Positions 5,651-64,000 of a stretch of 64,000 nucleotides of DNA are shown here, one piece after another. Positions within the stretch are counted from its first letter, which is position 1; every line of letters starts with the position of its first letter. Source of the stretch: an uncultured Gammaproteobacteria bacterium (GTDB lineage Bacteria > Patescibacteriota > Microgenomatia > UBA8517). Made by a program: the position numbers and the translations under genes. The notes under the pieces were generated by a model. That model saw only the letters and a list, made by a program, of their open reading frames with translations, searched no databases and was not told the DNA's origin. The stretch covers positions 5,983 through 69,982 of the forward strand of contig CAZBTH010000003.1 in assembly GCA_964494885.1 (NCBI GenBank). Reading direction: 5' to 3'.

Positions 5651-6448
5651 TTAGCATGTCTTCCTTGAATCTGCTTCATCCTTCGCTACAAGCAGCGAGG
5701 TATTTGCAGGTTCTCGAATAAAATATTTATCGATGAATTCACCCATTACTTTATTTACTTCCGCAACCACTGCCTTGTGACGGCGGTAGCCATGATCTGA
5801 ATTTAACTCGTGGAGCATTTTTGGCCCAGGAACAGATTCATATATTTCTTCAATTTCGCGGGGGGTGTAATACCTGTCGTCAGTCCCCGAGAATAATAAT
5901 TTTGGTTTCTTGCATTCTTTCAGAATAGCCAGAGTATCAAATTTTTCTCCGTCCTTAAAATATTCAATAGGTAGAGCAAATTCTTTCTGTTCCTTGGTCC
6001 TTTCACTTCCAGGTGGAATATCCCTATGCTCAATCTGAACTCCATCTTTGACAGACTTGGGAGGTGTAGGCGGTTCATACGAAGACATTACCAAAATAAT
6101 ACCGATTACATTTGGATTAACACTTGCCAATATAGCCACATTTCCACCTCGAGAGTGGCCAAGTAACAAAGTTGGCTTATTTCCATAATATTCAATTAAT
6201 TCATTAACGGCTTTAAGATAGTTGGTAGTTGTAAAAAGTTCGGTTCCTCCCGGACTTTCCCAGGTGCCGGGCGGGTCAATCGCCACAGTATAAAACCCTT
6301 TGCCGTCTAAATATTCCTGGTGGCTAACAAAATTGGCGTAATCTTTGGTATCAATCTTACCGGGAAGCATAAGAACGACTTTTGAAGCGTTTTTGTTCCC
6401 TTTTTCGTTTACCGCCAGTGTAAATGATTTAGTATTAACCAAATTCAT
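5651..6448 (-). CDS. Alpha/beta-hydrolase fold protein (dienelactone hydrolase/esterase-like)
   Basis: Nucleophile elbow LLLGHSRGG. Size and pattern fit an alpha/beta hydrolase. Confidence 0.6.
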   Translation of the reverse strand: MNLVNTKSFTLAVNEKGNKNASKVVLMLPGKIDTKDYANFVSHQEYLDGKGFYTVAIDPPGTWESPGGTELFTTTNYLKAVNELIEYYGNKPTLLLGHSRGGNVAILASVNPNVIGIILVMSSYEPPTPPKSVKDGVQIEHRDIPPGSERTKEQKEFALPIEYFKDGEKFDTLAILKECKKPKLLFSGTDDRYYTPREIEEIYESVPGPKMLHELNSDHGYRRHKAVVAEVNKVMGEFIDKYFIREPANTSLLVAKDEADSRKTC

Positions 6449-6493
6449 ACTTGAAGTATACCAAAGTCTGAAAGATGTGTTACAGCGCCTTGC

Positions 6494-6511
6494 AAGGTCG
6501 GACCTTTAAAG
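6494..6511. repeat. REP-like palindrome (upstream flank of the RAYT gene)
   Basis: AAGGTCGGACCTTTAAAG, a half-site-plus-core copy of the TTTAAAGGTCGGACCTTTAAAG palindrome. Confidence 0.8.
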
Positions 6512-6527
6512 ATAATATTTAATTAAC

Positions 6528-7217
6528 ATGCCCACAAAAAACTCCATTAAAATTTACGCAGAAAACACTATCTATCATGTTTACAATCGCGGCGTGGAAA
6601 AAAGAGATATCTTTCTAGACGAACAGGATTATAAAGTTTTTCTTGGATACCTAAAAGAATACTTGTCCCCACCCCCAAGTCTTGAAGATAGAATAAAAAA
6701 ATCTTTTACCTTAAAAGGTCGGACCTTTAAAGGTGTATCAAGACAGCCCAATAATTACTGCGAAAAAATTGATCTTTTGGCGTATTGTCTAATGCCCAAT
6801 CATTTTCACTTCATATTAAAACAAAATGATGACAAGAACACTTTGAAGGAATTTATGCGATCCCTACTTACAAGGTATTCAGTATATTTCAATAAAAAAT
6901 ATGAGCGTGTCGGATCGTTATTCCAAGGTAAATATAAAGCGATTATCGTAATGGACGAAGTCTATCTACTCCATCTGTCGAGATATATTCACATAAATCC
7001 TTATGAGATAACCAAAGATCTTGTAAACGCATATTCTTCTTATGCCGAATATTTAGGCATTAGGCACACAGATTGGATAAAACCAAAGCTTATACTTTCC
7101 TATTTTACCAATCAAAAAACGACCCCCGAATTTACAGCAATCAATACTTATAAAAGTTTCGTAGAAAATTATTTAAAAGATAATTCGAACATATTGGAAG
7201 GTCTAAGATTAGAGTAG
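6528..7217 (+). CDS. IS200/IS605-family Y1 (HuH) transposase, REP-associated tyrosine transposase (RAYT)-like
   Basis: YHVYNRGVEKRDIF, HuH motif LMPNHFHFIL, catalytic-Tyr motif RYIHINPY (compare YIYINP in E. coli RAYT). Flanked by REP palindromes and carries one internal copy. Confidence 0.85.
   Translation: MPTKNSIKIYAENTIYHVYNRGVEKRDIFLDEQDYKVFLGYLKEYLSPPPSLEDRIKKSFTLKGRTFKGVSRQPNNYCEKIDLLAYCLMPNHFHFILKQNDDKNTLKEFMRSLLTRYSVYFNKKYERVGSLFQGKYKAIIVMDEVYLLHLSRYIHINPYEITKDLVNAYSSYAEYLGIRHTDWIKPKLILSYFTNQKTTPEFTAINTYKSFVENYLKDNSNILEGLRLE
6711..6735. repeat. REP-like palindrome inserted in frame inside the RAYT gene
   Basis: TTAAAAGGTCGGACCTTTAAAGGTG, translated as LKGRTFKGV. Confidence 0.8.
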
Positions 7218-7241
7218 CTTTAAAGGTCCGACCTTTAAAGC
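7217..7241. repeat. REP-like palindrome (downstream flank of the RAYT gene)
   Basis: GCTTTAAAGGTCCGACCTTTAAAGC, a 25-nt near-perfect palindrome that overlaps the RAYT stop codon. Confidence 0.85.
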
Positions 7242-7799
7242 TTAATCGGTTTCGTATTCAATCACGACCCAAGGAGTTGGTTTATTAAAGCCGCACATTC
7301 TTAAGACATCAATTGAAGCCTCCCTATGTTTACCGTTTTCCACTCTTGAACCCCGAATTGCGATTTCGTCATTCTTAAAAAGGTTTTCATATACCACCCT
7401 ATCATGTATCACCTGCCCTAATCCATATAAATATTGCGGAAGGTTGTCGGTATGTCTTTTCAATTCACTGACATCGTGGGTTTCTGAATATTCTTTGAAT
7501 TTATGTTCAAATTCTCCGTATTCAGGATAGCCTTTAGGCTTAATTGGGTTTTGCTCTCTTAGAAACTTTGCCGACATTAATTCACCCCACGCTTGAGTAT
7601 CAATAACTCCTTGGCTATTTACAACACCCAGCTGATTAAGATACTGATTTAATAGCTGTCTAACACCGGCAGCTGCAGCCGGATCTTCGTGGCTTTTCTC
7701 TACAAGCCATGCCCAAAGCTTATCAATTTCTTCTGCACGCGTTTCCGAAGAACGCCTCTCGAATTGCTCTCCTCCTCTACCGAATCCACCCATATCCAT
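7242..7799 (-). CDS. Hypothetical protein, probably translationally coupled to the upstream UppS gene
   Basis: Its start lies 3 nt after the UppS stop. No recognisable motif. Confidence 0.45.
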   Translation of the reverse strand: MDMGGFGRGGEQFERRSSETRAEEIDKLWAWLVEKSHEDPAAAAGVRQLLNQYLNQLGVVNSQGVIDTQAWGELMSAKFLREQNPIKPKGYPEYGEFEHKFKEYSETHDVSELKRHTDNLPQYLYGLGQVIHDRVVYENLFKNDEIAIRGSRVENGKHREASIDVLRMCGFNKPTPWVVIEYETD

Positions 7800-7801
7800 T
7801 T

Positions 7802-10318: not shown

Positions 10319-11106
10319 CATATGCGCGTACCCGTTGTCTTTTTGCCCATTACTGCATTTTTGAGACTATTTTTTTCGTTTCCATTTACAATTGAGGTCG
10401 AAATATCATATTTTTTGGCTAAAGAAAGCGCCTGTTCAACTTTATGGAGCATTCCCCCTGTCACATCTACACTTTTTGCCCCAATAATTGAAGACTTTAA
10501 TTGATTAAAATTTTTATTCGTTATTACCGGAATAATGTTTCCTTTTTCGTCGTGAACTCCATTAACATCAGTGACGTAAATCATGCGAATTTTATAGTCT
10601 CTGACTAATTTCTTAGCAACGATAGAAAGTACTTTTTCTGTGGAAAAAATCGTGCAACCTTGCCCCCTGTCCATTATTACGTCTCCATATATGACAGGGT
10701 GCGACCCTGTCAGCAAAGCTTGTTTGATCGGGTCTAAATATGATTTATTAGATACTTGTGTATCAGAAATAATGAAACTTGCGGGAGAAAACGGAAAAAC
10801 CGGGAGATTTCCTTTGATGAAAATCTTTACTAAAATGTCATTTAGAGTTCTCGCCGCGTCTTCTACTATCGTCATTCCCATCAAACTCTTAGAATTGATA
10901 AGTCCTTTTTTTGTTTGATATTTTTTGGCGGGAGTATGTGCAAAAGACCCGGCGCCATGACCGATAACAATCGCGCAGGGAAACACTTTTAGTGCCGCTT
11001 TTATTTCCCCGCCTAATCTTTTTATATTTGCCGGTCGCGCAGTAAACTCCTTGGACTTATCCGTAATTACGCTCCCTCCAAGTTTTATAAATATTAGTTC
11101 TTTCAT
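10315..11106 (-). CDS. Amino-acid-kinase-family protein, probably isopentenyl phosphate kinase
   Basis: IKLGGSVITDK, HGAGSFAH, YGDV, DVTGG and NGN motifs match IPK/FomA-type kinases. Carries the palindrome GACAGGGTGCGACCCTGTC in frame at 10694-10712. Confidence 0.7.
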   Translation of the reverse strand: MKELIFIKLGGSVITDKSKEFTARPANIKRLGGEIKAALKVFPCAIVIGHGAGSFAHTPAKKYQTKKGLINSKSLMGMTIVEDAARTLNDILVKIFIKGNLPVFPFSPASFIISDTQVSNKSYLDPIKQALLTGSHPVIYGDVIMDRGQGCTIFSTEKVLSIVAKKLVRDYKIRMIYVTDVNGVHDEKGNIIPVITNKNFNQLKSSIIGAKSVDVTGGMLHKVEQALSLAKKYDISTSIVNGNEKNSLKNAVMGKKTTGTRIC

Positions 11107-15880: not shown

Positions 15881-15952
15881 TGCCCTCAGAGGGAATTGAA
15901 CCTCCATCTTACCCTTAGGACGGGTCTGCTCTATCCGTTGAGCTATGAGGGC
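15881..15952 (-). tRNA. tRNA-Arg (anticodon CCT)
   Basis: The reverse complement folds as a cloverleaf. Acceptor GCCCTCA/TGAGGGC, anticodon loop GTCCTAA, T-loop TTCAATT. CCA not encoded. Confidence 0.8.
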
Positions 15953-15961
15953 ATATTTACC

Positions 15962-16036
15962 TGGTCGGGGTGCTGGGAATTGAACCCAGTGTCTTTACGT
16001 CCCGAACGTAACGTGATACCGATTCACTACACCCCG
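15962..16036 (-). tRNA. tRNA-Pro (anticodon CGG)
   Basis: Acceptor CGGGGTG/CACCCCG, D-stem GTGA/TCAC, anticodon stem TTACG/CGTAA, loop TTCGGGA, T-arm CTGGG-TTCAATT-CCCAG. CCA encoded. Confidence 0.85.
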
Positions 16037-17722: not shown

Positions 17723-19009
17723 CTATATCAAGAGCTTTTTATACTTCTCCCCGTCCTTGTATGGCCCTATTATGGCCAAATTCAAGTGATCTTTAACAAA
17801 TATCTTTTTAGCTTCGTTTACGACTTCTTCTTTTGTCACTTTACCGATTCTCTTGTAAAGTTCGTCCGGAGTTAAAACCTCTTTCAAAAACATCACCTGT
17901 TCTGCAAAAAAGTCGCCTGCTGCTTGAGTATCTTCCAAGGAAAGCGCAATATGGCCCTTAAGATATTCTTTTGTTTTTTCCAACTCCTTGGGGGAAATCG
18001 GAAACTTGCCGTCCGCCAGACCGTAGAGTTGATCCAGAATAACTTTAATTGCTTCTTCGCTCTTGCCCGTATCCACACCTGCATAAAACCCTGTATATCC
18101 TACTTCGTTAAATTTATCTCCTGCCGGTTTAACAGCGTATGCCAATCCACGACGTTCCCTGACTTCTATAAACAACCTTGAACTCATAGGCCCTGCCAGT
18201 ATTGTGGAAAGTACACTTTGGGCAAATCGTCCCGAATACCCCCTGCCCTCGCTTAAAAAACCAAGGATTATATGAGCCTGTTCAACCTTTTTGATTTTAA
18301 GTTTAAATTTAGGACTTTTTTGTTCCGCTTTAAAGGTCTGACCTTTAAAGTCACTTATAGTTTTTCCACCTAGTGGGTGGAGAGAAGTAAAATATTTATT
18401 TACTAATTCAAGGGCTTCTTTTTCTGTAATACCGCCAGAAACTGAAACAAACATATTTTCGGGATAGTAATGTCGTCCTCTGTAAAGTTCGAAGTCGCTT
18501 TTAGTTATTCGTTTTACGCTCTTTGCTTCCCCACCTATATCCCACCCCAATGAACTACCTTTAAAAATTAGCCCCTCAAAAACATCGTGAATTTTTACCA
18601 TTGGAGTATCCTCGTACATCGCAAGTTCCTGAATAATCGTCCCTTTTTCGCGTTCTATCTCCTCGGGTTTTAGAAGCGGAGAAAGAACCATGTCACTTAA
18701 TACATCCATTGCGGTTTCGACACTACCTGAACGGGATTTTATATAAAAATTTGTCCAATCCTTACTTGTTGCCGCATTAAACTCTCCTCCTATCGAGTCC
18801 ACCGCCTCACTAATTGCCTTAGCGGAAGGTCTTTTTGCACTACCCTTAAAAACCATGTGTTCTAAGAAGTGGCTGATACCGTTGATTCGTTTGTCCTCAA
18901 ATCTTGACCCGGTTTTGACCCACACAGTTACGGTTACCGACTCCAACCCCGGCATGGGGACAGTTACAACAGTCAAACCGCTTTTTAGTTTATGAAGTTT
19001 GTATTCCAT
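17723..19009 (-). CDS. M16-family zinc peptidase (pitrilysin/insulinase-like) with an in-frame REP insertion
   Basis: Inverted zinc motif HFLEHMVFKGS (HxxEH). The likely start is MEYKLHKL at 19009. Confidence 0.8.
   Translation of the reverse strand: MEYKLHKLKSGLTVVTVPMPGLESVTVTVWVKTGSRFEDKRINGISHFLEHMVFKGSAKRPSAKAISEAVDSIGGEFNAATSKDWTNFYIKSRSGSVETAMDVLSDMVLSPLLKPEEIEREKGTIIQELAMYEDTPMVKIHDVFEGLIFKGSSLGWDIGGEAKSVKRITKSDFELYRGRHYYPENMFVSVSGGITEKEALELVNKYFTSLHPLGGKTISDFKGQTFKAEQKSPKFKLKIKKVEQAHIILGFLSEGRGYSGRFAQSVLSTILAGPMSSRLFIEVRERRGLAYAVKPAGDKFNEVGYTGFYAGVDTGKSEEAIKVILDQLYGLADGKFPISPKELEKTKEYLKGHIALSLEDTQAAGDFFAEQVMFLKEVLTPDELYKRIGKVTKEEVVNEAKKIFVKDHLNLAIIGPYKDGEKYKKLLI
18328..18350. repeat. 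REP-like palindrome inside the M16 peptidase coding sequence
   Basis: CTTTAAAGGTCTGACCTTTAAAG, translated in frame as FKGQTFKA. Confidence 0.85.
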
Positions 19010-19117
19010 GAAGCTAGTATATAGTATATTGTATGTAGTATGTAGGGGGAGCGAAAACCATGAAACTAGGATATAGTACATTGTATATGGGGAAACATAG
19101 GCACAAGGACAAAAGAC

Positions 19118-26195: not shown

Positions 26196-28025
26196 TCACA
26201 TTCGTTCGGGCGCTTGTATCCCAAGAAGTTGAAGGCCATTCTTAAGTATCTGCCCTGTTGCAGCTGTAAGCGTCACTCTGAATGCACTTATACTCTTCCA
26301 CTCTTCTGCTTTTCTACTCTCATCCTCCAAAATTCTAAATTTATTGTAAAAAGTATTATATTTCGAAGCCAAATCATATAAATAGTTACACAAAAGATTG
26401 GGTGAGTAAGTTTTGGCTGCAGTCGCTATTACCTCAGTAAATCGGGATAAAGCTCTTAGTAACGACAATTCTTCTTCAGTTTCCATTTTCCATTTGCCAT
26501 TTATCATTTCATTTGTAGATTTGCTTATTTGCTTATTTGTAGATTTAAGAAGTACGCTGTTGCATCGAGCAACTGTATATTGAAGATATGGGCCCGAGTT
26601 GCCTTCCAAAGACAGGGAACTTTCAAAATCGAACGCAATGTCCCCGCCTATCCCTTGCTTTAAAAATGCATATTTAACGGCTCCAAGGGCAACCTGTTCT
26701 GCAATTTCATCTTCCATATTGTGTGCATCAAGAAGTTTTTTCTTAGCTTCGTCCAAAACCCATTCCCCCCTAATAATTTTTCCGGTTCTTGAACTCATCT
26801 TTCCTTCGGGAAGACGGACCATCCCGTGCCCTATGTGTGTTGTAGCCTCGGCAAGATCCTTTTTGTACATAGATAGGGCTTTAAGGACAACGTCAAAATA
26901 GGCATCAATCTCGTTACCGGTCACGATAATCGATTTGTCATATGGAAAATCTTTGTATTTGGCAACAGCATTGCCGAAATCCTTGGCTTCGTATGTGGGC
27001 AAATTAAGGGCATTTATAAAAACCCTATTATGCAAACCGTATTTTTCTCCAGGAAAAATTACAGCGCCACGCTCACCCTTCTCAAAAATTCCTTTGGCCA
27101 AACCGTCCAAAACCATTCCATAGCCAAATTCTCCGGTTCTGCTTTCCGGATAATAGCCGTCAAACTTCATCCCAACCCTTTTATAAATTGATTCGAAATA
27201 TTCCAAACTCCATGCCCTACCAATTTCATAAATATTTTTGATTTCAGAATAAGAATACTTGCCGTCTTTTTTGATATATTGATCGTAGTTCACCTGTGGA
27301 GATTCGTTGAATTCCGGCAAAACCACTTCCTGTGCAGCCTTGAAAATTAAAAAGTTAAGCTCTTTCATATCTTCTACTGCTTTCGGATCTTCTTCAAAAG
27401 CAGTTGCACCTTTTGCGTATGCTTGTCCAAAATACTCGATTCTTTCTTTTAGAGGCTTTTCGGTAAGGTCTTTAATATCAACTTTGTCCTCTGAAAACTT
27501 AAACATTAAACCCCAAATCGCCTTGGCAGCATGCATGCCAACATCGCCAAAATAATCGGCTCGCCATACGTCTCCGCCAATCGCGCTTTGCAAGCGGCTA
27601 ATCGATTCACCAACCGTATTTGTATATAAGTGGCCTATATGAAACTCTTTGAATGGGTTGGGATCGGTATATTCAACAACTACTTTTTTACCCTTAAGAA
27701 AACCGCTCTTTCCATAACTTTCCCCTTCTTTCTGTATCTTCCCAAGCTCGTTGACAAGGGTCCCCCCTGTCAACCAAAAATTTATAAAACCCGGGCCGGC
27801 GACTTCAATTTTTTCAATAAATTTGGATAATTCGGGAGACTGGGATAGTTTGATTTTGATTTCTTCAGCCAATTCCCTTGGATTTTTGCCCTCGCTTTTT
27901 GCCATGATTAGCGCAATATTGCACGAGTAGTCGCCGAATGTTTCGTTTTCGGGAAATTCCAAGCTGATTTCCTTTGCTTTGGTTACAGCTTCTAAAGCCG
28001 TTAGTATTTTAGTTCTAGTTTCCAT
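26196..28025 (-). CDS. argS: Arginine--tRNA ligase
   Basis: HIGH-class motif region and KMSSRTG (the KMSKS-like motif). C-terminus ...LLGIQAPERM. The likely start is METRTKIL at 28025. Confidence 0.9.
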   Translation of the reverse strand: METRTKILTALEAVTKAKEISLEFPENETFGDYSCNIALIMAKSEGKNPRELAEEIKIKLSQSPELSKFIEKIEVAGPGFINFWLTGGTLVNELGKIQKEGESYGKSGFLKGKKVVVEYTDPNPFKEFHIGHLYTNTVGESISRLQSAIGGDVWRADYFGDVGMHAAKAIWGLMFKFSEDKVDIKDLTEKPLKERIEYFGQAYAKGATAFEEDPKAVEDMKELNFLIFKAAQEVVLPEFNESPQVNYDQYIKKDGKYSYSEIKNIYEIGRAWSLEYFESIYKRVGMKFDGYYPESRTGEFGYGMVLDGLAKGIFEKGERGAVIFPGEKYGLHNRVFINALNLPTYEAKDFGNAVAKYKDFPYDKSIIVTGNEIDAYFDVVLKALSMYKKDLAEATTHIGHGMVRLPEGKMSSRTGKIIRGEWVLDEAKKKLLDAHNMEDEIAEQVALGAVKYAFLKQGIGGDIAFDFESSLSLEGNSGPYLQYTVARCNSVLLKSTNKQISKSTNEMINGKWKMETEEELSLLRALSRFTEVIATAAKTYSPNLLCNYLYDLASKYNTFYNKFRILEDESRKAEEWKSISAFRVTLTAATGQILKNGLQLLGIQAPERM

Positions 28026-34866: not shown

Positions 34867-35493
34867 ATATACACTTACCAAATCTTTTATCTTGTTATAC
34901 GCAGAACTCTTCAAAACACCTTTTGACAGCAATTCTTCAACGTTTGAGTACGGTCTGTGTTCAATTATGTTTTGGCCATAAACTTGGCCAATTCCAGGCA
35001 ATGAGTCGAGCTCCTGAAGGGTCGCTGTATTGATATTGACAAGGGGGCCCCTTGTCACCCCTAAAACGGGTTGATCTACTTTGATATCATCATAAGTTTT
35101 AGCAGTCAAGTTGTCTGACTGCTGATTGGCGTTGGGTATATACACCTTTTGTCCGTCTGTTAATTTTGCCGCGCGGTTTAGATATTTATCCGTCCAAACT
35201 CTGTCCGCGTTAACCGAAAACCCGCCGGAAACAACCAAAAGATCCTCAACGCGACTACCACCGGAAAGTTTATAAACACCCGGTTTAACTACTTCTCCAG
35301 CAATTTCCACTGTTAAGTCCTGACGAATGTCGAAACCTTCGTTATTATCAAGAATTTCAACCTTTGTTGATGGAGACGCCAGTCCACTTTTAAAAAAGAA
35401 AATCCCCGCGCCGGTAGCGATCAACCCCCCGAGAAGTATTAAAAGAGGATAACGAAAACGGTTTAACATTTCATCTATATTGAAGCTGTGCAT
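34864..35493 (-). CDS. comEA: Competence protein ComEA (SLBB plus helix-hairpin-helix DNA-binding)
   Basis: HhH motif INTATLQELDSLPGIGQVYGQNIIEHR. N-terminal TM anchor. Confidence 0.8.
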   Translation of the reverse strand: MHSFNIDEMLNRFRYPLLILLGGLIATGAGIFFFKSGLASPSTKVEILDNNEGFDIRQDLTVEIAGEVVKPGVYKLSGGSRVEDLLVVSGGFSVNADRVWTDKYLNRAAKLTDGQKVYIPNANQQSDNLTAKTYDDIKVDQPVLGVTRGPLVNINTATLQELDSLPGIGQVYGQNIIEHRPYSNVEELLSKGVLKSSAYNKIKDLVSVY

Positions 35494-35567: not shown

Positions 35568-38126
35568 TCAACCTATTACAAAATTAATTACCTTGCCGGA
35601 TATAAAAATTGTCTTTTTAATGGTTTGCCCTTCCAACCACTTGGCCACATTAGCGTCAGATTTGGCCAATTTGGTTACCTCAGATTCTTGCTTCGAGATT
35701 CCAGATTCCAGCTTCAAAGTAGCCCTTAACTTGCCATTGACTTGAACCACAACCGTGACCTTATTCTGAACAATAAGTTTAGGGTCGTAGGAAGGCCAAG
35801 GAGCCTTGTGAATGCTAAAAGGCATACCTAAGACCTCTACCCATATTTCCTCCATCATATGAGGCGCAAAAGGGGCCAGGAGGAGGGCCAAAGCACTTAA
35901 GACCTCAGAAGTCTGATGACTGATATTTGATGTCTGAATCGAAGTTTGATTTTCGATCTTCGTTTTTCCGACTTCGTTTCTGATTTCAGACTTCTGACTT
36001 CCGGCTTCTGTTAGTGTATTCACCAGTTCCATAAGAGATGAAATTGCCGTATTGAATTTATAGTTTTCAATATCCTCCCCCACTTTTTTGATAGTTTGGT
36101 GGAGCTTTGATAAAACTTCACTGTTGACTGCTGATTGTTGACTGCTGATTGTTGACTGTTGGAACAGACGCCAAACACGTCCCAAAAATCTGGCTATTCC
36201 TTCAACTCCTGTTATACTCCACGGTTTCATTACGTCAAACGGTCCCATAAACATTTCATAAACACGAAGCGTATCAGCTCCAAATTTGGGAATAATATCG
36301 TCAGGTGTAATCACATTTCCCCATCTTTTGCTCATTTTGCGGGAATCAGGTCCAAGTATCCAACCAGGAGCACGGAGCTTTAAAAATGGCTCGTCTCCCA
36401 CAGATTTATCGATTAGACCTTGGTCAAATAAGAACTTCCAGAAAAATCTGGCAAAAAGTAAATGTTGGACAACATGTCCCCCGCCAACGTAGTCGTCAAC
36501 AGGAATAATATTTTCTTTTGAAGCAAACTCTTTAATATTCTTTGGATCGCAAAATCTCATAAAATACCAAGAGGAGTCAACATATGTATCCATTGTATCA
36601 ACCTCTCGTTTGGCCGGCTTTCCACAAATAGGACAGACTACATCTTTCTGGAAAGTTTTAGATCTGGCAATCGGACTTTCACCATGTGGTTGGAAATCGA
36701 CATCGGTAGGAAGAACAACTGGTAGATTTTTTTCTTCTACGGGAAACCAGCCAGCCATACCTTTAAAGGATGATCCTTTAAAGGTGTCGGATGCACAATG
36801 CTCGCAATAGATCATGGGGATAGGACAACCCCAATATCTTTGGCGGGAAATTAACCAATCACGGATATGGTAAGAGACCGTTCTCTTGCCAATTCCTTTA
36901 TCCTCAAACCAGTCCATAGTCTTTTGCAATCCCTCTTCGAAACTCAAGCCGTTTAGAAATTCAGAATTGATAAATTTTCCTTCCATCCCATGTTCAATAA
37001 CCTGTTCTTTTGTTTCTATTTCTGAAGTATCGCCGTCTTTTCCTACAATGACCCTAACAATAGGAAGGTCGTATTTTTTGGCAAACTCAAAATCATTCAA
37101 GTCATGTCCCGGACAACCCTGAACAGCTCCTGTCCCCACACCGGCAACTACAAAATCAGAAACCCAAACCGGAACTTCTTTGTTGTTTATAGGATTAATT
37201 GCATACAAACCGGTAAACACCCCTGTTTTTGTCTTATTGGCCACATTTGTCACATTAGATGAATTAGAAAGATGCTCTTTGATGTATTTATCTACACTTT
37301 CTTGATTCTCTTTAGGGATCTTAAGTTGTTTTAATAGTTTGTGTTCTGGAGCTAAAACCAGAAAAGTCATGCCGAAATTTACAGGAGCAGTTGTAAAAAC
37401 TTCTATTTCCTCGTCGGAATCAACAACCTTATATCGAATATTTATCCCTTCTTTCCTCCCAATCCAATTAACCTGCTGTCTTTTAACTTCGTCTTCCCAA
37501 TCAATTTTTTCAAGACCCGAGATTAAACGGTCAGCATAGGCAGTGATTTTAAAGAACCACTGATCCATATCTTTTTGTATTACTTCTGTATCACACCGTT
37601 CACATTTACCCTCAACCACTTGTTCATTGGCCAAAACTGTTTCATCTTTAGGACACCAATTGACAGGAGACTTCTTTTTGTAAGCCAAACCAGCTTTGAA
37701 AAGCTGAATAAATATCCACTGAGTCCATTTATAAAATTCGGGAGAACTTGTGTCAATTTCCTTATCCCAATCATAAGACATGCCGCTTATTTCCAATTGG
37801 CGTTTGAATGTTTTTATATTCTCGTGAGTGGATTTATCAGGGTGAATCCCGGTTTTAATAGCATAATTTTCCGCGGGAAGGCCAAATGCATCCCACCCCA
37901 TCGGATGAAGAACGGAATGACCCCTCATCCTAAAATATCGGGACAGGATATCTGTGCCAACATAGCCCTCAAGATGACCAACATGCATCGAGGCGCCGGA
38001 AGGATAAGGGAACATGTCCAAGATATACTTTTTCTTTTTTCCGGCTTCCGGAGTTTTGTAAACACCCTCCTTCTCCCATTTTTTTTGCCATTTTGGTTCG
38101 ACAACTGAATGGTCGTATTTATCCAT
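35568..38126 (-). CDS. leuS: Leucine--tRNA ligase with several in-frame repeat insertions
   Basis: HMGHLEGY (HIGH) and KMSKRWGN (KMSKS). Conserved editing and anticodon-binding regions. Confidence 0.95.
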   Translation of the reverse strand: MDKYDHSVVEPKWQKKWEKEGVYKTPEAGKKKKYILDMFPYPSGASMHVGHLEGYVGTDILSRYFRMRGHSVLHPMGWDAFGLPAENYAIKTGIHPDKSTHENIKTFKRQLEISGMSYDWDKEIDTSSPEFYKWTQWIFIQLFKAGLAYKKKSPVNWCPKDETVLANEQVVEGKCERCDTEVIQKDMDQWFFKITAYADRLISGLEKIDWEDEVKRQQVNWIGRKEGINIRYKVVDSDEEIEVFTTAPVNFGMTFLVLAPEHKLLKQLKIPKENQESVDKYIKEHLSNSSNVTNVANKTKTGVFTGLYAINPINNKEVPVWVSDFVVAGVGTGAVQGCPGHDLNDFEFAKKYDLPIVRVIVGKDGDTSEIETKEQVIEHGMEGKFINSEFLNGLSFEEGLQKTMDWFEDKGIGKRTVSYHIRDWLISRQRYWGCPIPMIYCEHCASDTFKGSSFKGMAGWFPVEEKNLPVVLPTDVDFQPHGESPIARSKTFQKDVVCPICGKPAKREVDTMDTYVDSSWYFMRFCDPKNIKEFASKENIIPVDDYVGGGHVVQHLLFARFFWKFLFDQGLIDKSVGDEPFLKLRAPGWILGPDSRKMSKRWGNVITPDDIIPKFGADTLRVYEMFMGPFDVMKPWSITGVEGIARFLGRVWRLFQQSTISSQQSAVNSEVLSKLHQTIKKVGEDIENYKFNTAISSLMELVNTLTEAGSQKSEIRNEVGKTKIENQTSIQTSNISHQTSEVLSALALLLAPFAPHMMEEIWVEVLGMPFSIHKAPWPSYDPKLIVQNKVTVVVQVNGKLRATLKLESGISKQESEVTKLAKSDANVAKWLEGQTIKKTIFISGKVINFVIG
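36760..36784. repeat. REP-like palindrome inside the LeuS coding sequence
   Basis: CCTTTAAAGGAT-G-ATCCTTTAAAGG is a perfect 12+1+12 palindrome, translated TFKGSSFKG. It lies in an insertion relative to canonical LeuS. Confidence 0.85.
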
Positions 38127-57204: not shown

Positions 57205-58032
57205 TCACAAATTTTTAAGATATTCCTTTGCCAATTCTTGAAAATTCCCGGCGAACGACATTACCGACTCCCTTTCTTCTATAAACGGAGTTAAATCGTC
57301 TTCAATCATCTCTTTTGTAACTTTTTTAATCTTTTGGTTAATCAGTTTAATAGCCTTAACTTTAGACAAGCCTGTTTGGTTTTCAACCTGAACCCAATTG
57401 GGTTTTATTCCCTTCTCCAGATACCAAATCAGATCATAATAATCCCTGCCTTTAAACCTGACAACATTTTCCACTCCTTCGATTTTCTCTCTGGTTAATA
57501 TTGCGCTGATTTTGCCCGCAAACAAATCTTCAATAGAGTATCTCCTCATCACAAAGGAAAGATTCTCATAACTTTTGGCTGTGACCTCCACCCTTGCATA
57601 GGGCTTGTCGTTTTGAGAAAAATCAATCCGGATATGCAATATATTAGTCTCACTTTGATCTACCGGTAACCCAATTTCTTTGAGTATCGGAAACTTCAAG
57701 TAAATTGTTCTTCTATTGTTTGCAAGTTTAACTGACAAATCGTCAAATTTTAGCCTTTCGGAAAAATAATTTTTTAAAGCATCGGAAAAATCTTCTATGT
57801 TAAAATTTGACCCGACCTCAACGTCAAAATCTAAATCTTCCGAAAGTCTTGGCAGCTTAAAACAAAACCTCAAGGCGGTCCCGCCCTTAAATAAAAGGAT
57901 CTTGCCCCAATTGCCCGTAAAGACGAAGTTGAGTACGTAATACTGAATGGCCTCTTTTAACAGGCTTCTAACATAGAGCTTATTTTTATCTTTATTCTCC
58001 AGATATACTTGTTTTAATTTAGAAAGAAACAT
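57205..58032 (-). CDS. AbiEii-like nucleotidyltransferase toxin (type IV TA), copy 1
   Basis: LLFKGGTALRFCFKLPRLSEDLDFD shows the GGTAL and SEDLDF hallmarks of the AbiEii family. Confidence 0.75.
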   Translation of the reverse strand: MFLSKLKQVYLENKDKNKLYVRSLLKEAIQYYVLNFVFTGNWGKILLFKGGTALRFCFKLPRLSEDLDFDVEVGSNFNIEDFSDALKNYFSERLKFDDLSVKLANNRRTIYLKFPILKEIGLPVDQSETNILHIRIDFSQNDKPYARVEVTAKSYENLSFVMRRYSIEDLFAGKISAILTREKIEGVENVVRFKGRDYYDLIWYLEKGIKPNWVQVENQTGLSKVKAIKLINQKIKKVTKEMIEDDLTPFIEERESVMSFAGNFQELAKEYLKNL

Positions 58033-58660
58033 AATTTTTTTCTATACTTTTCAATACCGTTGACATTTTTTTACTCTTGGCTGATTTTACATACAATTTA
58101 AACTCACCCAGATCTTCTTTTGTAAAACTATCCCAATTTATTCTAGCATCCAAAACGGATACACCGATATTCTCCATTCTTTTAAGATAAAAATAATCAA
58201 ACAATGCTTTAGCTTTGGAAGCGATATAAATTGTCTTATCTTGCCATTTCTTTTGCCTAAAACCCAAAAATAAGGTTGACTTAATACTTTTATATATAAA
58301 GTTTCCCAAAAAATTATTATATTTTCTGGTCGTTTTCGTGGTAATTGAAGTTATGGAAAAAACAGATTCGGGGATCAGACCTTCGTTAGAAAGCACGTAT
58401 TCACCGGATATATATGAAGGTTCTCTTAAAACGTTGGTAATATACTCAAAGTAAGGTTCCTTTTCTACTCTTTCGAAAAAAGGGTCGGTTACATACAAAC
58501 CTTTTTTTAAAACTTTCAAATAACCGATTTTAACGAGACGTTCTAATTTTTTGTCAAGATTCCTGCCTTCCTTATCGACAAGGATAGATGCCGTACTTTT
58601 GTTGAAAAAAGGCAATTTCTCGAGCTCCTCCTGATACTTTATTCCAGAAATACTAATCAT
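58019..58660 (-). CDS. AbiEi-like antitoxin/transcriptional regulator, copy 1
   Basis: Lies upstream of copy-1 AbiEii and overlaps it by 14 nt. N-terminal wHTH-like region ...LERLVKIGYLKVLKKGLYV. Confidence 0.6.
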   Translation of the reverse strand: MISISGIKYQEELEKLPFFNKSTASILVDKEGRNLDKKLERLVKIGYLKVLKKGLYVTDPFFERVEKEPYFEYITNVLREPSYISGEYVLSNEGLIPESVFSITSITTKTTRKYNNFLGNFIYKSIKSTLFLGFRQKKWQDKTIYIASKAKALFDYFYLKRMENIGVSVLDARINWDSFTKEDLGEFKLYVKSAKSKKMSTVLKSIEKNYVSF

Positions 58661-58708
58661 TTAGTAGTAATTCTAAAACAAATGGGGGTATTTGTCAAGT
58701 CTTCCCAA

Positions 58709-59431
58709 TCAGAAAAATTTATCCAACTCCATCAAAAGCGGTTTTGGGAATGCGTCAATCGCGGGCTTCATGCTTTTAGGAAGAAAGTGTAAAAGTTCAT
58801 CGCCAAATTTAATTTGTTTTTTCTCCAATATTTCTCGAATTTTCTTCAATTCGTCTTTTTCTGAAACAGTTAGCTCACCATTTTTCAATAAGAAATATAC
58901 ATCATAAAAATCTCTGGGTTTACTTCTTGTAAGTGCTGCTTGAATTTTCTCCCCTATCATTTCTCTTTTAGGCAACAAATATGCCTGATAGGTTGGAATA
59001 TATTCATTCAAAATATCAACTATGTCATAGTCAATACCTATTTTTTTTCTTAATGAAATTTGAATATTAATTGGAATTTTCAAAGTCAAAATATTAACAT
59101 ATAATTTGGCCAAATACCCACCCGTTGTTCCTTTAGACTCTTCAATATCACAATTTAAACCATTGTTTGATAATTCTTCCAAGACAGAAAGAATTATCTT
59201 TTCAATCTCTCTATTGTCAACCTCACAAGCTGAGAAATCTAGATCTTCTGAAAAACGAGGACTTTTATATGCTAGCCTGTATGCAGTCCCGCCTTTAAAA
59301 AGAATTTTATTGGAATTTTCAATTTGATATAACGAAGACAAAAACAGATGCTGGGCATATTCCCTATGAACATTATCAGTTGTAGTTTGAAATTTGTTTT
59401 GTATTATTAACAGTCTTTCGTAAGTTAGCAT
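58709..59431 (-). CDS. AbiEii-like nucleotidyltransferase toxin, copy 2
   Basis: ILFKGGTAYRLAYKSPRFSEDLDFS. Confidence 0.75.
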   Translation of the reverse strand: MLTYERLLIIQNKFQTTTDNVHREYAQHLFLSSLYQIENSNKILFKGGTAYRLAYKSPRFSEDLDFSACEVDNREIEKIILSVLEELSNNGLNCDIEESKGTTGGYLAKLYVNILTLKIPINIQISLRKKIGIDYDIVDILNEYIPTYQAYLLPKREMIGEKIQAALTRSKPRDFYDVYFLLKNGELTVSEKDELKKIREILEKKQIKFGDELLHFLPKSMKPAIDAFPKPLLMELDKFF

Positions 59432-59432
59432 A

Positions 59433-60008
59433 TTATTTAAAAACTTTTTTTAATAAATTGTCCAATCGTTTATCGTTAAAATAATTTGCGTAATTAAAAA
59501 TCTTTTGCTTGTCTAGTTTGACAATATTCATTCGATCATTTAAAACTCGCTTGCCTAGAGCTACAAAATATAAATAATCTACAAGCGCTTTCTCGGGATC
59601 AGCTATAAGTATGTCATTAATTAAATCATAACCTGTATAGGCTTGTTTTTTAATTTTATAATATCGATACATAGTCTGTTCGTCGCCAAATTCTCTTGTG
59701 GCCTTTGTGGTTACAGACGTAATTGTATATACAGTCTCCGGGATAATGTTGTGTCTGGAGAGTGCTGTATCTAAAGATATATATGACGGTGAATAAACTT
59801 TGTTCGCAATTCTAAATTTGTCGTTGACTTCATTTCGCAAATAATAAACACCCCTTCGCGGACTAATTAGATACCCTTTAGCCTTATACCTTGAAAGTTT
59901 AACGGCGACAACTTTTCTATCCACATTAAAAATGTTCACAAAATCCTGATTTGTAAATACTTCCAAATTATGCTCTTTTAATGTCTGCCTGATTTGTTGG
60001 AAATTCAT
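59433..60008 (-). CDS. AbiEi-like antitoxin, copy 2
   Basis: Lies 1 nt upstream of copy-2 AbiEii. ...LSRYKAKGYLISPRRGVYYL. Confidence 0.6.
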   Translation of the reverse strand: MNFQQIRQTLKEHNLEVFTNQDFVNIFNVDRKVVAVKLSRYKAKGYLISPRRGVYYLRNEVNDKFRIANKVYSPSYISLDTALSRHNIIPETVYTITSVTTKATREFGDEQTMYRYYKIKKQAYTGYDLINDILIADPEKALVDYLYFVALGKRVLNDRMNIVKLDKQKIFNYANYFNDKRLDNLLKKVFK

Positions 60009-60657: not shown

Positions 60658-62244
60658 TTGAATAACATGGCGGCACCAATTTACACTTCAGACCTAACAG
60701 ATCTTCTAACCGATATGGCCTCAACAACGGGCTGGACGGCTCTTGGGGGTGGAGCCGGTGGTTTGGTTGCACCTGAGACCGACTTTTTTATCCAAGGAAA
60801 CAATTGTATTTCCAAAGCAGGCTGGTCGTCTGCCGTAAAGGGAATGGTCTACAATGTAGGCAGCGGCCAGACAGTTGCTAGTGGCAAAGCAGTTTTTATG
60901 TGGATTTATTACTGGGCGCCAAACTCTTTGGACGTTGAAGCTGGCACTCCAGGAGGACTCCAGCTACTTATTGGTAGCTCTACTACAGCCTACAAAGCCT
61001 GGGACATCCGCGGAAAGGACACCCTTACTTACGGAGGTTGGGTTTGCGGAGTAGTCGACCCAACCACCGGCGCTGATGACGTCACCGGCTCTCCATCCGC
61101 CACACTTCAATATTTTGGCGCAACAGCTAATGTTCCGGGGGCGGGTCCATCAAAAGGACAGCCTTTGGGAATTGATGCTTTTCGCCACGGACGTGATTTT
61201 ACCTGCACAAACGGCGACGCCTCAAATGGTTATGCAACTTTTTTAGGAGCCGCCTCTTATAATGACAATGTCACGAGGCGCTACGGCCAAATCCAAGCAA
61301 CTGACGGTGGTTATTTGCAGCAAGGAAGGTTTTTAATGGGATCCTCTTCTATAGCCGTTGACTTTCGCGACAGCAATAAATCAATACTTATAGCCAGGAC
61401 TCCAAAAGTTTCATCTAGCTTCAACACTTTTGAAGTACAAAATGCTGCAAGCCGTGTTGACTGGACAAATATTACCATCACGGCTTTAGGTACAACTTCG
61501 AGGGGAGATTTTGTCACAACCGACAACGCCAACATAAACATTGATAGTTGTACATTTACGGATATGGGAACGTTTGATTTCCAATCGAATAGCACTATTC
61601 TTACATCTACATTTCGAAGGTGTAATTTGGTAACACAAAGTTCTGCCGTCTTCACCGATTGCACTTTTGACTCAACCAATGACTCAACAAAGGCCATTCT
61701 GTCGAACAATCCCGCCAATATTTCAAACTGCACTTTTATTTCTAGCGGCACCAAGCATGCAATAGAGATCAACACGGCCGGAACATATTCTTTTACCGGA
61801 AATGCTTTTGTCGGTTATGCCACCGGCAACGGCTCAACCGGCAATGAAGTTATTTACAATAATTCAGGCGGTTCTGTAACACTTAATCACTCGGGAACTA
61901 CCGGCACTATTTCTGTCAGGAACGGCTCCGGGGCCACGACCACGGTCGCAGTCTCGGCTACATTAACCATTGAAATCCGCAACTCGGATGACGGAACACT
62001 AATCACCCAAAATTGTGAAGTAACCGTTGTCAAGGTGTCAGATGAATCGATTCTTTTTCATGAGGATGATATAACGGACGGCATAACTGAATATTCATAC
62101 TCCACCGGTTCGGGAACATCAATCTATATAAATGTTATTAATACAGCGGGTTATCAAAACAAAGTTGTGTTTCAAACATTGTCTGCAAACAGTGAAACTG
62201 CGAAAGTATTTTTGGATACAGACAGAATTTACACCAACCCCTAA
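60658..62244 (+). CDS. Ser/Thr/Gly/Asn-rich parallel-beta-helix-like protein, no signal peptide (possibly phage-derived fibre or tailspike)
   Basis: Repeated motifs such as NCTFISSGTKHAIEIN, DSCTFTDMG and TDCTFDS. About 49% GC against about 36% in the flanks. Confidence 0.5.
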   Translation: MNNMAAPIYTSDLTDLLTDMASTTGWTALGGGAGGLVAPETDFFIQGNNCISKAGWSSAVKGMVYNVGSGQTVASGKAVFMWIYYWAPNSLDVEAGTPGGLQLLIGSSTTAYKAWDIRGKDTLTYGGWVCGVVDPTTGADDVTGSPSATLQYFGATANVPGAGPSKGQPLGIDAFRHGRDFTCTNGDASNGYATFLGAASYNDNVTRRYGQIQATDGGYLQQGRFLMGSSSIAVDFRDSNKSILIARTPKVSSSFNTFEVQNAASRVDWTNITITALGTTSRGDFVTTDNANINIDSCTFTDMGTFDFQSNSTILTSTFRRCNLVTQSSAVFTDCTFDSTNDSTKAILSNNPANISNCTFISSGTKHAIEINTAGTYSFTGNAFVGYATGNGSTGNEVIYNNSGGSVTLNHSGTTGTISVRNGSGATTTVAVSATLTIEIRNSDDGTLITQNCEVTVVKVSDESILFHEDDITDGITEYSYSTGSGTSIYINVINTAGYQNKVVFQTLSANSETAKVFLDTDRIYTNP

Positions 62245-62303
62245 CCCTACAGCATATTGACAAGTCGTGGACTAAACACTATAATAATTATAGTGTTTGG
62301 ACT

Positions 62304-62891
62304 ATGAAATATAATAAAAAGTCGATCGCCAGTATTCTGCGTTCTCCAAAAACAGTTTTTACCTTTAAAGACGTTTCATTAATTTGGGGCGACACCAATA
62401 AAAAAAATGTTATAGCAAGCGCTAATTATTACGTTAGAACCGGTCAACTCATTAGAGTTAGAAAGGGAATCTATAGCAAAAACGAAAATTATGACCGAAT
62501 GGAACTGGCTAATAGAATTTTTGTTCCATCATATATTAGTTTCGAAACAGTGTTGGGCAAGGAAGGTGTTAATTTTCAATATTACGGCCAAATATTTATT
62601 GCCTCTTATCTTACCCGTAACATAATTATCAACAACCAAACTTATTCATTTAGAAAAATTAAGAATGAAATCCTTGTAAACCCATTAGGAATCAACAACG
62701 AAAATGACATATCAACGGCAACCAAAGAGCGGGCTTTTTTGGACACCATTTATATAAACGGGGACTATTATTTTGACCACATTGATTCACTTGATTGGAA
62801 AAAGATATTTGAAATCCTTCCAATATATAACAAAAAACAAATGGCCAAAAAAGTTAAATATTGGTACAATTATTTTAAAGAAAACAGATAA
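62304..62891 (+). CDS. AbiEi-like antitoxin, copy 3
   Basis: Immediately upstream of copy-3 AbiEii. ...YYVRTGQLIRVRKGIYSK. Confidence 0.6.
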   Translation: MKYNKKSIASILRSPKTVFTFKDVSLIWGDTNKKNVIASANYYVRTGQLIRVRKGIYSKNENYDRMELANRIFVPSYISFETVLGKEGVNFQYYGQIFIASYLTRNIIINNQTYSFRKIKNEILVNPLGINNENDISTATKERAFLDTIYINGDYYFDHIDSLDWKKIFEILPIYNKKQMAKKVKYWYNYFKENR

Positions 62892-63584
62892 ATGTCGCTT
62901 AATATACCAAAACACAGAGATATCCTTTTACAAATTCTAAAGGATGTATATTCTGATACAACAATTTCTTCATTTTTAGGATTTAAAGGAGGGACCGCCG
63001 CTCTGCTTTTTTATGATTTAAGCCGTTTTTCAGTAGACCTGGATTTCGATTTGATTGATGAAACTAAAGAAGATGAAGTTTTTGAAAAAATAAAAGTGAT
63101 TTCTCAAAAATATGGTGTGCTGGAGGCTAAAAAGAAACGTTTCAATTTGATATTTATTATTTCCTATGCAAAAAATGAGCAAAAGATCAAAATTGAAATT
63201 AACCGCAGACATTTTGGTTCAAAATACCAACTAAGGACTTATTTAGGTATCTCCGTACTTGTTATGAATGAGGAGGATATGTTTGCCCATAAATTGATGG
63301 CTATGAACGAAAGATTTGAGAAAACCAGCCGTGATATATATGACGTTTGGTTCTTTTTGAAAAAAGGTTGGCCAATTAATAAAAAAATTATTGAAGAAAG
63401 ATCGGGTAAATCTTTTATTAGTTTATTAAAAGACAATTTGAATAAATTAGAAAATATGAATAATGGCAATATTCTAAAAGGAGTTGGCGAACTTTTAACG
63501 CAAAGTCAAAAGGACTGGGCAAAGGCAAAACTAAGAGATGATACAATATTTCTTTTGAAATTAAGATTGGAAAACGAAAATTAG
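62892..63584 (+). CDS. AbiEii-like nucleotidyltransferase toxin, copy 3
   Basis: LGFKGGTAALLFYDLSRFSVDLDFD. Confidence 0.75.
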   Translation: MSLNIPKHRDILLQILKDVYSDTTISSFLGFKGGTAALLFYDLSRFSVDLDFDLIDETKEDEVFEKIKVISQKYGVLEAKKKRFNLIFIISYAKNEQKIKIEINRRHFGSKYQLRTYLGISVLVMNEEDMFAHKLMAMNERFEKTSRDIYDVWFFLKKGWPINKKIIEERSGKSFISLLKDNLNKLENMNNGNILKGVGELLTQSQKDWAKAKLRDDTIFLLKLRLENEN

Positions 63585-63688
63585 TATATCAATTCCGTCT
63601 TAAATATATCAATTCCGACGTAAATATAAATCCCCCTTGACAGACCTTGCCACGGTCGCTGTAAACTGTTTCTAATCGATTTCAAAGA

Positions 63689-63730
63689 TTAGAAATATAG
63701 AAGATTAGAAATATAGAAGATTAGAAATAA
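63689..63730. repeat. 18-nt tandem repeat (AGATTAGAAATATAGAAG, about 2.5 copies) just upstream of a start codon
   Basis: agattagaaatatagaagattagaaatatagaagattagaaataaATG. Confidence 0.8.
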
Positions 63731-64000
63731 ATGGCGAAAATTGTTGATCCAGATTCATTAAACCAAGCAACCGAAGTCGTAATTGATACGACTTTAAAGA
63801 CAATCCAGCTTCTCGCAACCGGAAACTTAAGTAATGCCTCCCCCGGTTCAACGTCCGGCGTTACCCTCCAAGCCGTTTATTCGTTCTTAAAAGAGGAATG
63901 GAAAACCGATACGGCACTAAACAAATTTAAATTTCCCATCAAAATGTTTACGAAGACTGACGGAATCATGATTAACGCTTGGGATTGGAAAGATGCAACC
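63731..64000 (+). CDS. 5' part of an unknown protein (partial, runs off the window end)
   Basis: MAKIVDPDSLNQATEVVIDTTLKTIQLLATG... Open to the end of the window. Confidence 0.45.
   Translation, partial: MAKIVDPDSLNQATEVVIDTTLKTIQLLATGNLSNASPGSTSGVTLQAVYSFLKEEWKTDTALNKFKFPIKMFTKTDGIMINAWDWKDAT

Follow-up and report, generated by a model that had tools for sequence, protein, structure and literature searches.

Repetitive extragenic palindromic (REP) sequences and REP-associated tyrosine transposases (RAYTs) form systems that, to our knowledge, have been studied almost only in Proteobacteria, where the REPs are extragenic and numerous, typically present tens or hundreds of times and with a conserved GTAG or CGTC tetranucleotide at their 5' foot. 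IS200, a member of the IS200/IS605 group of insertion sequences (ISs), is a lone gene of ~700 bp with hairpins at its ends, one of which also controls expression. Elements of this group typically occur as several near-identical copies in a genome or on plasmids and phages, have different subterminal hairpins at the left and right end, and insert 3' of a fixed tetra- or pentanucleotide. RAYT genes flanked by REPs are already known (PMC5581495, PMC3479197), and a gene without near-identical duplicates is typical of RAYTs and unlike proliferating insertion sequences (Bertels et al. 2017, PMC5581495). A 5' GTAG tag is essential for TnpA_REP, the E. coli enzyme (PMC3479197). Rickettsia palindromic elements (RPEs) lie in-frame in unrelated, often essential genes of a reduced genome and add peptides at permissive surface sites (PMC10969869). 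Here, we describe a locus in a 64-kb stretch of contig CAZBTH010000003.1 (the window, to which the counts of dispersed copies given below refer), where the open reading frame (ORF) 6528-7217, encoding a RAYT-like enzyme, is bracketed by copies of the palindrome CTTTAAAGGTC(S)GACCTTTAAAG. In our judgment, this locus is probably a REP/RAYT-type system of a Microgenomates bacterium with cognate REP-like hairpins. An earlier reading made from the letters alone, the sequence-only reading, had proposed a RAYT, and that interpretation is supported here; its description of the palindromes is confirmed in part, with the 5' copy corrected.

The enzyme gene and its palindromes

The features of the locus are as follows:

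6528-7217, plus strand: RAYT-like Y1/HUH enzyme gene, 229 aa, ATG to TAG, assigned by Pfam, NCBIfam, homologues and fold
6489-6511: 5' copy CTTGCAAGGTCGGACCTTTAAAG, an imperfect palindrome whose arms pair at 9 of 11 positions, with an equivalent element at the same place in homologous loci
6490-6518, plus strand: putative sigma-70-type promoter, with -35 box TTGCAA at 6490-6495, a 17-nt spacer and -10 box TAATAT at 6513-6518
6708-6734, plus strand: internal in-frame copy ACCTTAAAAGGTCGGACCTTTAAAGGT, with 12 of 13 possible pairs, encoding TLKGRTFKG (site A, defined below)
7216-7242: 3' copy AGCTTTAAAGGTCCGACCTTTAAAGCT, a perfect palindrome with 13-bp arms and a single central base

ORF 6528-7217 encodes an intact Y1 HUH enzyme that falls on a distant branch of the RAYTs, and no other ORF in the window matches such an enzyme. 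The two motifs that had been picked out in its translation are both in place: the HUH motif is H92-F-H94 (nucleotides 6801-6809), and the catalytic tyrosine is Y153 (6984-6986) within RYIHINP. The Pfam model Y1_Tnp (PF01797), against which a check had been proposed, matches the protein with 36.2 bits, above its cut-off of 23 (E = 7e-9), and the best NCBIfam model is REP_Tyr_transpos (NF047646). By its sequence, the enzyme appears to be a distant relative of the proteobacterial REP_Tyr_transpos enzymes and no equivalog of them. All residues that are invariant in the family are kept in the window protein, including H92, H94, and Y153, which are invariant across the aligned homologues. Since a sequence search of the PDB with the family profile gave marginal hits, to ISDra2 TnpA around the HUH motif at E ~0.06, a fold search was needed to place the enzyme. 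The AlphaFold2 model, built on 59 homologues, has a predicted local distance difference test score (pLDDT) of 83 and a predicted template modelling score (pTM) of 0.81. Its top PDB match in Foldseek is 4er8_A, E. coli TnpA_REP with a REP hairpin (E = 5.2e-6, target TM-score 0.62), and the TnpA proteins of ISDra2 and IS608 are significant matches ranked behind it.

The enzyme belongs to a large family. A word-indexed search returned >7,900 homologues, and the best 120 of these are nearly all full-length, with 59-76% identity and lengths of 221-261 aa; the named entries among these 120 are Patescibacteria, Microgenomates or Woesebacteria, some of them carrying the JGI label RayT. An exhaustive HMMER search gave 391 clusters (50% identity) at E <= 1e-30. 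The expectation of the sequence-only reading that a RAYT would be unusual in a compact genome of the candidate phyla radiation (CPR) therefore fails, because the >7,900 close homologues come mostly from Patescibacteria and Microgenomates. Many close relatives outside the window (P0367, P0370, P0377, P0400, P0472) have Y1_Tnp fused to a C-terminal bacterial SH3_3 domain; these proteins are 350-470 aa long, with 43-53% identity over residues 1-220, and the pairing is an odd one for a transposase.

The palindrome occurs at three places in the gene. The 3' copy, AGCTTTAAAGGTCCGACCTTTAAAGCT, folds as single-stranded DNA with -10.8 kcal/mol and z = -6.8. It occupies the gap between the stop codons of ORF 6528-7217 and the convergent ORF 7242-7799, sharing 2 nt with the former's TAG and 1 nt with the latter's stop codon. 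In most homologous loci, the 3' hairpin likewise begins a few nt from the stop codon, and TAG stops are enriched (27 of 68 loci, versus a background of 21%). The 5' copy ends 16 nt upstream of the ATG; its centre and right arm (16 nt) match the other copies exactly, and its left arm differs. A near-perfect palindrome had been claimed on both sides of the gene, which is right for the 3' copy and overstated for the 5' copy. The internal copy, also noticed before, is present at 6708-6734 and in the model is predicted to form a beta-hairpin, with strands at residues 56-62 and 65-70 and a block-mean pLDDT of 82-87.

The evidence that ties these palindromes to the enzyme comes from a comparison of homologous loci, 80 from species-representative genomes and 2 from metagenomes. 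Co-variation was assessed in the 68 loci with both flanks, which come from Woese-, Gottesman-, Curtiss-, Levy-, Davies-, and Chisholmbacteria and other lineages. Palindromes flank the gene in nearly all of them and are alike within a locus and different between loci, so that the RAYT-type flanking arrangement proposed earlier holds for the family. The 5' and 3' flanks of the same locus have in common an exact word of at least 10 nt in 56 of 68 loci, versus 17 of 330 permuted pairs, and most elements consist of variable arms closing on RGG-N5-CCY. This is the pattern that would be expected of a RAYT with its REP.

The co-variation extends into the coding sequence. In 55 of 68 loci, versus 24 of 203 permuted pairs, an exact word of at least 11 nt is common to the flanks and the coding sequence of the same locus, and these matches are 11-30 nt long and locus-specific. 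Across homologous loci, the internal copy lies at one of two conserved positions: site A, at residues ~50-70 in the stretch that separates helix 1 from the HUH strand, which the window gene uses, or site B, at residues ~150-172 directly after the helix of the catalytic tyrosine. At site A, L024 carries ATTGCAAGGTCAGACCTTGCAAT three times, with the internal copy translated as TLQGQTLQY, and L005 carries CAAGGACTGTCCTTG three times, with the internal copy translated as MQGLSLQ. At site B, L051 has TGCAAGGCGACGCCTTGCA, translated as LQGDALQ, and in L071 a stretch of 29 nt is identical in flank and coding sequence. Lineages differ in the frame in which the internal palindrome is translated (KGRTFK, GSDP, KDSPL, TRAPLV), and it is therefore the DNA element that is conserved and not the peptide. 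These comparisons indicate that the internal copy is no incidental match: it is conserved in the gene family and co-varies with the flanks.

The 5' copy also appears to overlap the promoter of the gene. In the window, the ATG lies 9 nt beyond the -10 box TAATAT. Of 70 loci scored against random controls, 47 have a promoter-like site with a score of at least 9, versus 19% of the controls, and the layout recurs in the family: the left arm of the 5' palindrome coincides with the -35 box (TTGCAA or TTGACA) or lies directly next to it, loop and right arm make up the 17-nt spacer, and the -10 box ends 5-7 nt upstream of the ATG in 34 loci. The proposed promoter of ORF 6528-7217 is missing from the output of a consensus promoter scan of 6300-7400; the overlap is supported by its conservation across loci, for which the window alone would be insufficient. 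Such an overlap would explain the imperfect palindrome of the 5' copy in the window, and the layout predicts an mRNA that is leaderless or nearly so. The divergent hydrolase gene (5651-6448) has a promoter-like site of its own on the minus strand at 6455-6483 (GTAACA, 17 nt, TG-TATACT), with the -10 box ending 6 nt upstream of that gene's ATG; genes of this genome may be leaderless more generally.

Copies elsewhere in the window and in relatives

Palindromes of the same family are found in six other genes of the window, as follows:

36757-36787: variant copy CCTTTAAAGGATGATCCTTTAAAGG, in-frame in the leucyl-tRNA synthetase (LeuRS) gene, read as TFKGSSFKG
2170-2219: inverted doublet resembling a REPIN (a REP doublet forming a hairpin), GACAGGGTCGGACCCTGTC, 16 nt, AAGGGTCCGACCTTT, in-frame in an ATP-binding cassette (ABC) exporter gene, read as RTGSDPV and KGSDLS
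18328-18350: solo copy CTTTAAAGGTCTGACCTTTAAAG, in-frame in an M16 peptidase gene (ORF 17723-19081, minus strand), read as DFKGQTFKA
10692-10712: TGACAGGGTGCGACCCTGTCA, in-frame in an amino-acid kinase gene, read as LTGSHPV
27750-27774: GTTGACAAGGGTCCCCCCTGTCAAC, in-frame in the arginyl-tRNA synthetase (ArgRS) gene, read as WLTGGTLVN
35037-35057: TGACAAGGGGGCCCCTTGTCA, in-frame in a ComEA-like gene, read as VTRGPLV

The palindromes reported before at 2170-2188, 10692-10712, 18328-18350, and 36759-36785 are real and lie within 1-2 nt of where they had been placed, and the claim that the family is dispersed is extended by further window copies at 2205-2219, 27750-27774, and 35037-35057 and by 40 metagenome sites. 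When at most 2 mismatches are allowed, the window contains the core word AAAGGTCSGACCTTT 5 times versus 0.20 expected, a count that none of 100 shuffles attained. There are 7 hairpins with at least 8 pairs around a GG-N3/5-CC core, versus 0.48 expected and a maximum of 3 in 100 resamples. All seven window copies outside the RAYT locus, the doublet elements at 2170-2188 and 2205-2219 among them, are in-frame within well-supported genes; the dispersed copies of the window are intragenic, in contrast to the extragenic REPs. At gathering thresholds, the hairpins match no Rfam family; the only Rfam matches in the window are two adjacent tRNA genes at 15881-16036 on the minus strand.

Relative to solved structures and orthologues, the intragenic copies fall in insertions or in variable loops and linkers. 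The LeuRS copy is part of a 14-aa insertion without counterpart in T. thermophilus LeuRS and in the 88%-identical orthologue of CP066686.1, and the same LeuRS site carries other hairpin variants in other lineages, namely a perfect CTTTAAAGGCCAGGCCTTTAAAG in L123 and CCTTAAAGGGTCAGACCCTGAAAGG in L122. The first element of the doublet lies in a 16-aa insertion that is missing from an ABC exporter orthologue and from ABCB4. In the M16 peptidase, the copy is in the linker between two M16 domains, with a 4-aa length difference from the comparators. The copies in the amino-acid kinase and in ArgRS are same-length substitutions relative to orthologues, and the ComEA-like copy is a same-length replacement in a variable linker. 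Palindromes as recombination breakpoints were considered, given the mosaic look of the ArgRS and LeuRS proteins, but nucleotide identity to the comparator is uniform at ~75-83%, which gives no sign of recent recombination, and the idea was dropped. In CP066686.1, the closest complete genome, LeuRS carries an N-terminal insertion of 23 aa of its own (L083:10001-10090) without counterpart at window 38126; relatives have LeuRS proteins of 649 to 919 aa, and insertions are thus frequent in the LeuRS of this group.

In metagenome contigs, an exact-pattern scan found 40 sites on 33 contigs, of which only 3 sites are at a RAYT gene; among the sites within ORFs, 15 of 16 have the reading FKGxTFK(G/A/V). 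Several of the palindrome-bearing contigs are from related Microgenomates, with a LeuRS of 72-75% nucleotide identity to that of the window. These related contigs hold 2-3 intergenic copies per ~10 kb inside a composite repeat, which joins the hairpin to TGACAAGGTCCGTCCTTGTCA and once also to GACAGGGTCGGACCCTGTC, the palindrome of window 2170. The order in the composite repeat is hairpin a, GGTACC, TGACAAGGTCCGTCCTTGTCA, and then CTTTCGCAACAGACAACAATCAA and further sequence; it is often near LeuRS and resembles the mosaic of a bacterial interspersed mosaic element (BIME). It occurs at L086:473, 2486, and 6616, at L100:4476 and 10513, at L117:5423 and 11391, and at other positions. Because such clusters combine all three palindrome types of the window, these types form one superfamily. 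Four REPIN-like inverted doublets, AGGGTCTGACCCT followed by AGGGTCAGACCCT with starts 33 nt apart, are present in L042 (9683-9762, 12164-12243, 13230-13309, 17664-17743) within 10 kb of a RAYT homologue, and three of the four are intergenic.

Elsewhere in the window, the stretches 58001-60000 and 62001-64000 are low in G+C (0.32-0.33 versus ~0.40 elsewhere), and a palindrome with 12-bp arms, AAACACTATAATAATTATAGTGTTT, lies between two ORFs at 62274-62298.

Proposed mechanism and alternative explanations

By homology, the enzyme would bind the single-stranded hairpin of CTTTAAAGG-TCSGA-CCTTTAAAG and would cut and rejoin the DNA beside it, and this cutting and rejoining may copy or replace hairpins around the genome at low frequency. 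The 5' copy would double as promoter region with its left arm as the -35 box, and protein binding or hairpin extrusion there could throttle transcription, making autoregulation via the 5' copy plausible. The protein would tolerate the in-frame internal copy because the loop that holds it is permissive. The other copies would lie inside genes because the genome has almost no intergenic space, and those that persist would be the ones that landed in-frame and stop-free in gene loops or linkers, where they add or replace 5-16 residues. The fold and motifs, the flanking palindromes, the three-way co-variation, the promoter overlap in the family, the in-frame copies within genes and the variable presence of the gene in relatives are observed; hairpin binding and cleavage, hairpin mobilisation, autoregulation and the reason for keeping the internal copy are what we infer.

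Because all three copies at the gene co-vary, the same protein must recognise all of them, or they are continually homogenised. We tentatively suggest, as a possibility that we rate somewhat below even, that the gene-embedded copy at its two ancient positions and the 5' and 3' copies are kept identical while the hairpin drifts, either since the enzyme overwrites hairpins in place or through obligatory self-recognition (autoregulation or self-limitation). In-place overwriting, if true, would explain the same-length substitutions in ArgRS, ComEA, and the kinase as well as the lineage-specific variants at the fixed LeuRS site, and it would bear on how REP populations stay homogeneous. As a corollary, REP-type hairpins would be a recurrent source of short lineage-specific peptide insertions in essential proteins of the candidate phyla.

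Several observations weigh against a REP/RAYT-type system. The protein misses the equivalog cut-off of NF047646 (45.6 bits versus 80) and is only ~11% identical to E. coli TnpA_REP, and the mechanism as a whole is one that would follow from homology. The SH3_3 fusions hint that part of the family may have a function other than transposition. In the window, the 5' copy is a poor hairpin (-3.0 kcal/mol, z = -1.0, not significant), and the promoter agrees with the consensus at no more than 8 of 12 positions. Just 4 of 68 loci have GTAG before the 3' copy; the window is one of these, with the tag arising from GAG-TAG, and GTAG was accordingly dismissed as a trait of the family. Copies are few: the exact palindrome type has only 2 copies outside the locus in 64 kb, beyond which the window holds 5 related copies, all intragenic, and 26 copies outside the locus were counted in the flanking DNA of homologous loci (978 kb), a low number that is nonetheless well above the ~1 expected. 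Finally, several intragenic copies are same-length substitutions, which simple cut-and-paste insertion does not explain.

An autonomous IS200/IS605-type element is an unlikely alternative, in which the flanking hairpins would be the ends of a ~750-bp unit moving by peel-and-paste and the other palindromes would be unrelated or scars. The unit is indeed compact, with a hairpin at each end of a lone Y1 gene, and IS608 and ISDra2 TnpA are significant fold matches; the top match, however, is TnpA_REP and no IS transposase. The gene is also present in some relatives and absent from others at this locus, an observation that fits a REP/RAYT-type system as well, so that it has been gained, lost or moved. 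In L120, whose UppS has 94% protein and 89% nucleotide identity, an unrelated 508 nt replaces window 6466-7801, that is, the RAYT gene and ORF185 (7242-7799, 185 aa, unannotatable). The slot between the UppS and alpha/beta-hydrolase genes is variable, with an unrelated 104-aa ORF in L120. In L118 and L121 (UppS 82-83% identical), the RAYT gene is missing between UppS and the M32 peptidase, an interval that holds three small ORFs in L121 and nothing in L118, and in the more distant L002 the RAYT gene adjoins UppS. Synteny in the family is weak, which also suits a mobile unit; neighbours are shared with the window only in L002, L034, L021, and L066, and conserved synteny was for this reason set aside as evidence of strict vertical descent.

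The replaced segment of L120 gives no clean boundary, however, and no clean insertion boundary or empty site for the RAYT unit was recovered, the L120 slot (1512-2019) being unrelated DNA. A comparison of orthologous loci, which had been put forward from the sequence, has thus yielded relatives without the gene (L120, L118, L121) and LeuRS and ABC insertions missing from orthologues, but no clean empty site. Among the fetched loci, no identical or near-identical copies of the element were found either: paralogues in one genome are 46-56% identical and each has its own palindrome, and all pairs of loci stay at or below 90% identity, which suggests that this RAYT gene behaves unlike a proliferating IS. 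The same palindrome stands at both ends of the gene and also alone, doubled, and clustered far from Y1 genes, and a scan of viral contigs found no relatives.

It is improbable, too, that the palindromes are expression signals (operator or promoter, bidirectional terminator), with the Y1-like protein a domesticated DNA or RNA binder and the intragenic copies kept as mRNA structure, binding sites or similar. The overlap of the 5' copy with a conserved promoter, the position of the 3' copy exactly between two convergent stop codons, the strong full-length conservation of the family, and the SH3_3 fusions, which suggest new functions in relatives, all fit this explanation. The 3' hairpin, however, is without a T-tract, and a terminator scan of 6300-7400 reported none at the 3' copy, so that a terminator there was dropped. 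The same palindromes also occur in-frame in unrelated genes, in intergenic clusters, and in the inverted doublets of relatives, and the invariant HUH and tyrosine residues would argue for retained catalysis. The remaining idea, that the intragenic palindromes are chance or by-products of conserved or convergent peptide motifs (TFKG = ACC TTT AAA GGT), is largely refuted and very improbable: the closest homologues do conserve FTL[QK]GxTFKG, a perfect 12-nt palindrome can code for T-F-K-G and another for T-L-Q-G, and some copies are same-length substitutions, but the frame varies by lineage while the DNA still matches the flanks of its locus (55 of 68 versus 24 of 203 permuted, in locus-specific flank-to-coding-sequence matches), counts are ~15-fold above chance, and the LeuRS and ABC copies lie in insertions missing from orthologues.

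Relation to described systems

A literature search of incomplete coverage found no description of the candidate-phyla RAYT-like family, no RAYT gene with its own REP in-frame, and no REP fused to a RAYT promoter. Ultra-small candidate-phyla genomes contain a very large uncharacterised RAYT-like family with a layout unlike the classical one: a cognate hairpin wired into the promoter, translated within the enzyme, and tolerated in-frame in aminoacyl-tRNA synthetases and other core genes. The three-way co-variation of 5' flank, internal copy, and 3' flank across dozens of lineages could reveal how Y1 enzymes read hairpins, and the locus would offer a concrete route for selfish hairpins to remodel proteins once intergenic space is exhausted.

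Among described systems, the closest is RAYT/TnpA_REP as represented by E. coli YafM (PDB 4ER8), the best structural match, which likewise has the Y1 HUH fold with the HUH and tyrosine motifs. As there, the gene is flanked on both sides by a cognate short palindrome whose type co-varies with the gene lineage, identical gene duplicates are lacking, with paralogues having palindrome types of their own in the fetched loci, and related genomes contain inverted doublets and composite clusters. Unlike RAYT/TnpA_REP, the window enzyme has 229 aa, including an additional conserved stretch of ~70 aa at the C-terminus, shows ~11% identity to 4ER8, stays below the NCBIfam equivalog cut-off, and lacks a conserved GTAG. 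Its palindromes are near-perfect with a GG-N5-CC core and low in copy number, and in the window they are intragenic and in-frame instead of extragenic. A cognate copy placed in-frame within the transposase gene, at either of two conserved sites, and a 5' copy fused to the promoter of a predicted leaderless gene are further differences. With the IS200/IS605 group (IS200, IS608, ISDra2), the system would share a Y1 HUH enzyme acting on single-stranded DNA hairpins; here, however, the same palindrome is at both ends and also solo elsewhere, there is no multi-copy identical element, and the fold match is weaker than that to TnpA_REP. Rickettsia palindromic elements resemble the window copies in being palindromic repeats in-frame in protein-coding genes. 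RPEs are ~100-150 bp long with a conserved peptide and no known cognate transposase, whereas the elements described here are 19-31 nt long, encode a peptide that varies with the frame, and are tied to a Y1 gene by co-variation.

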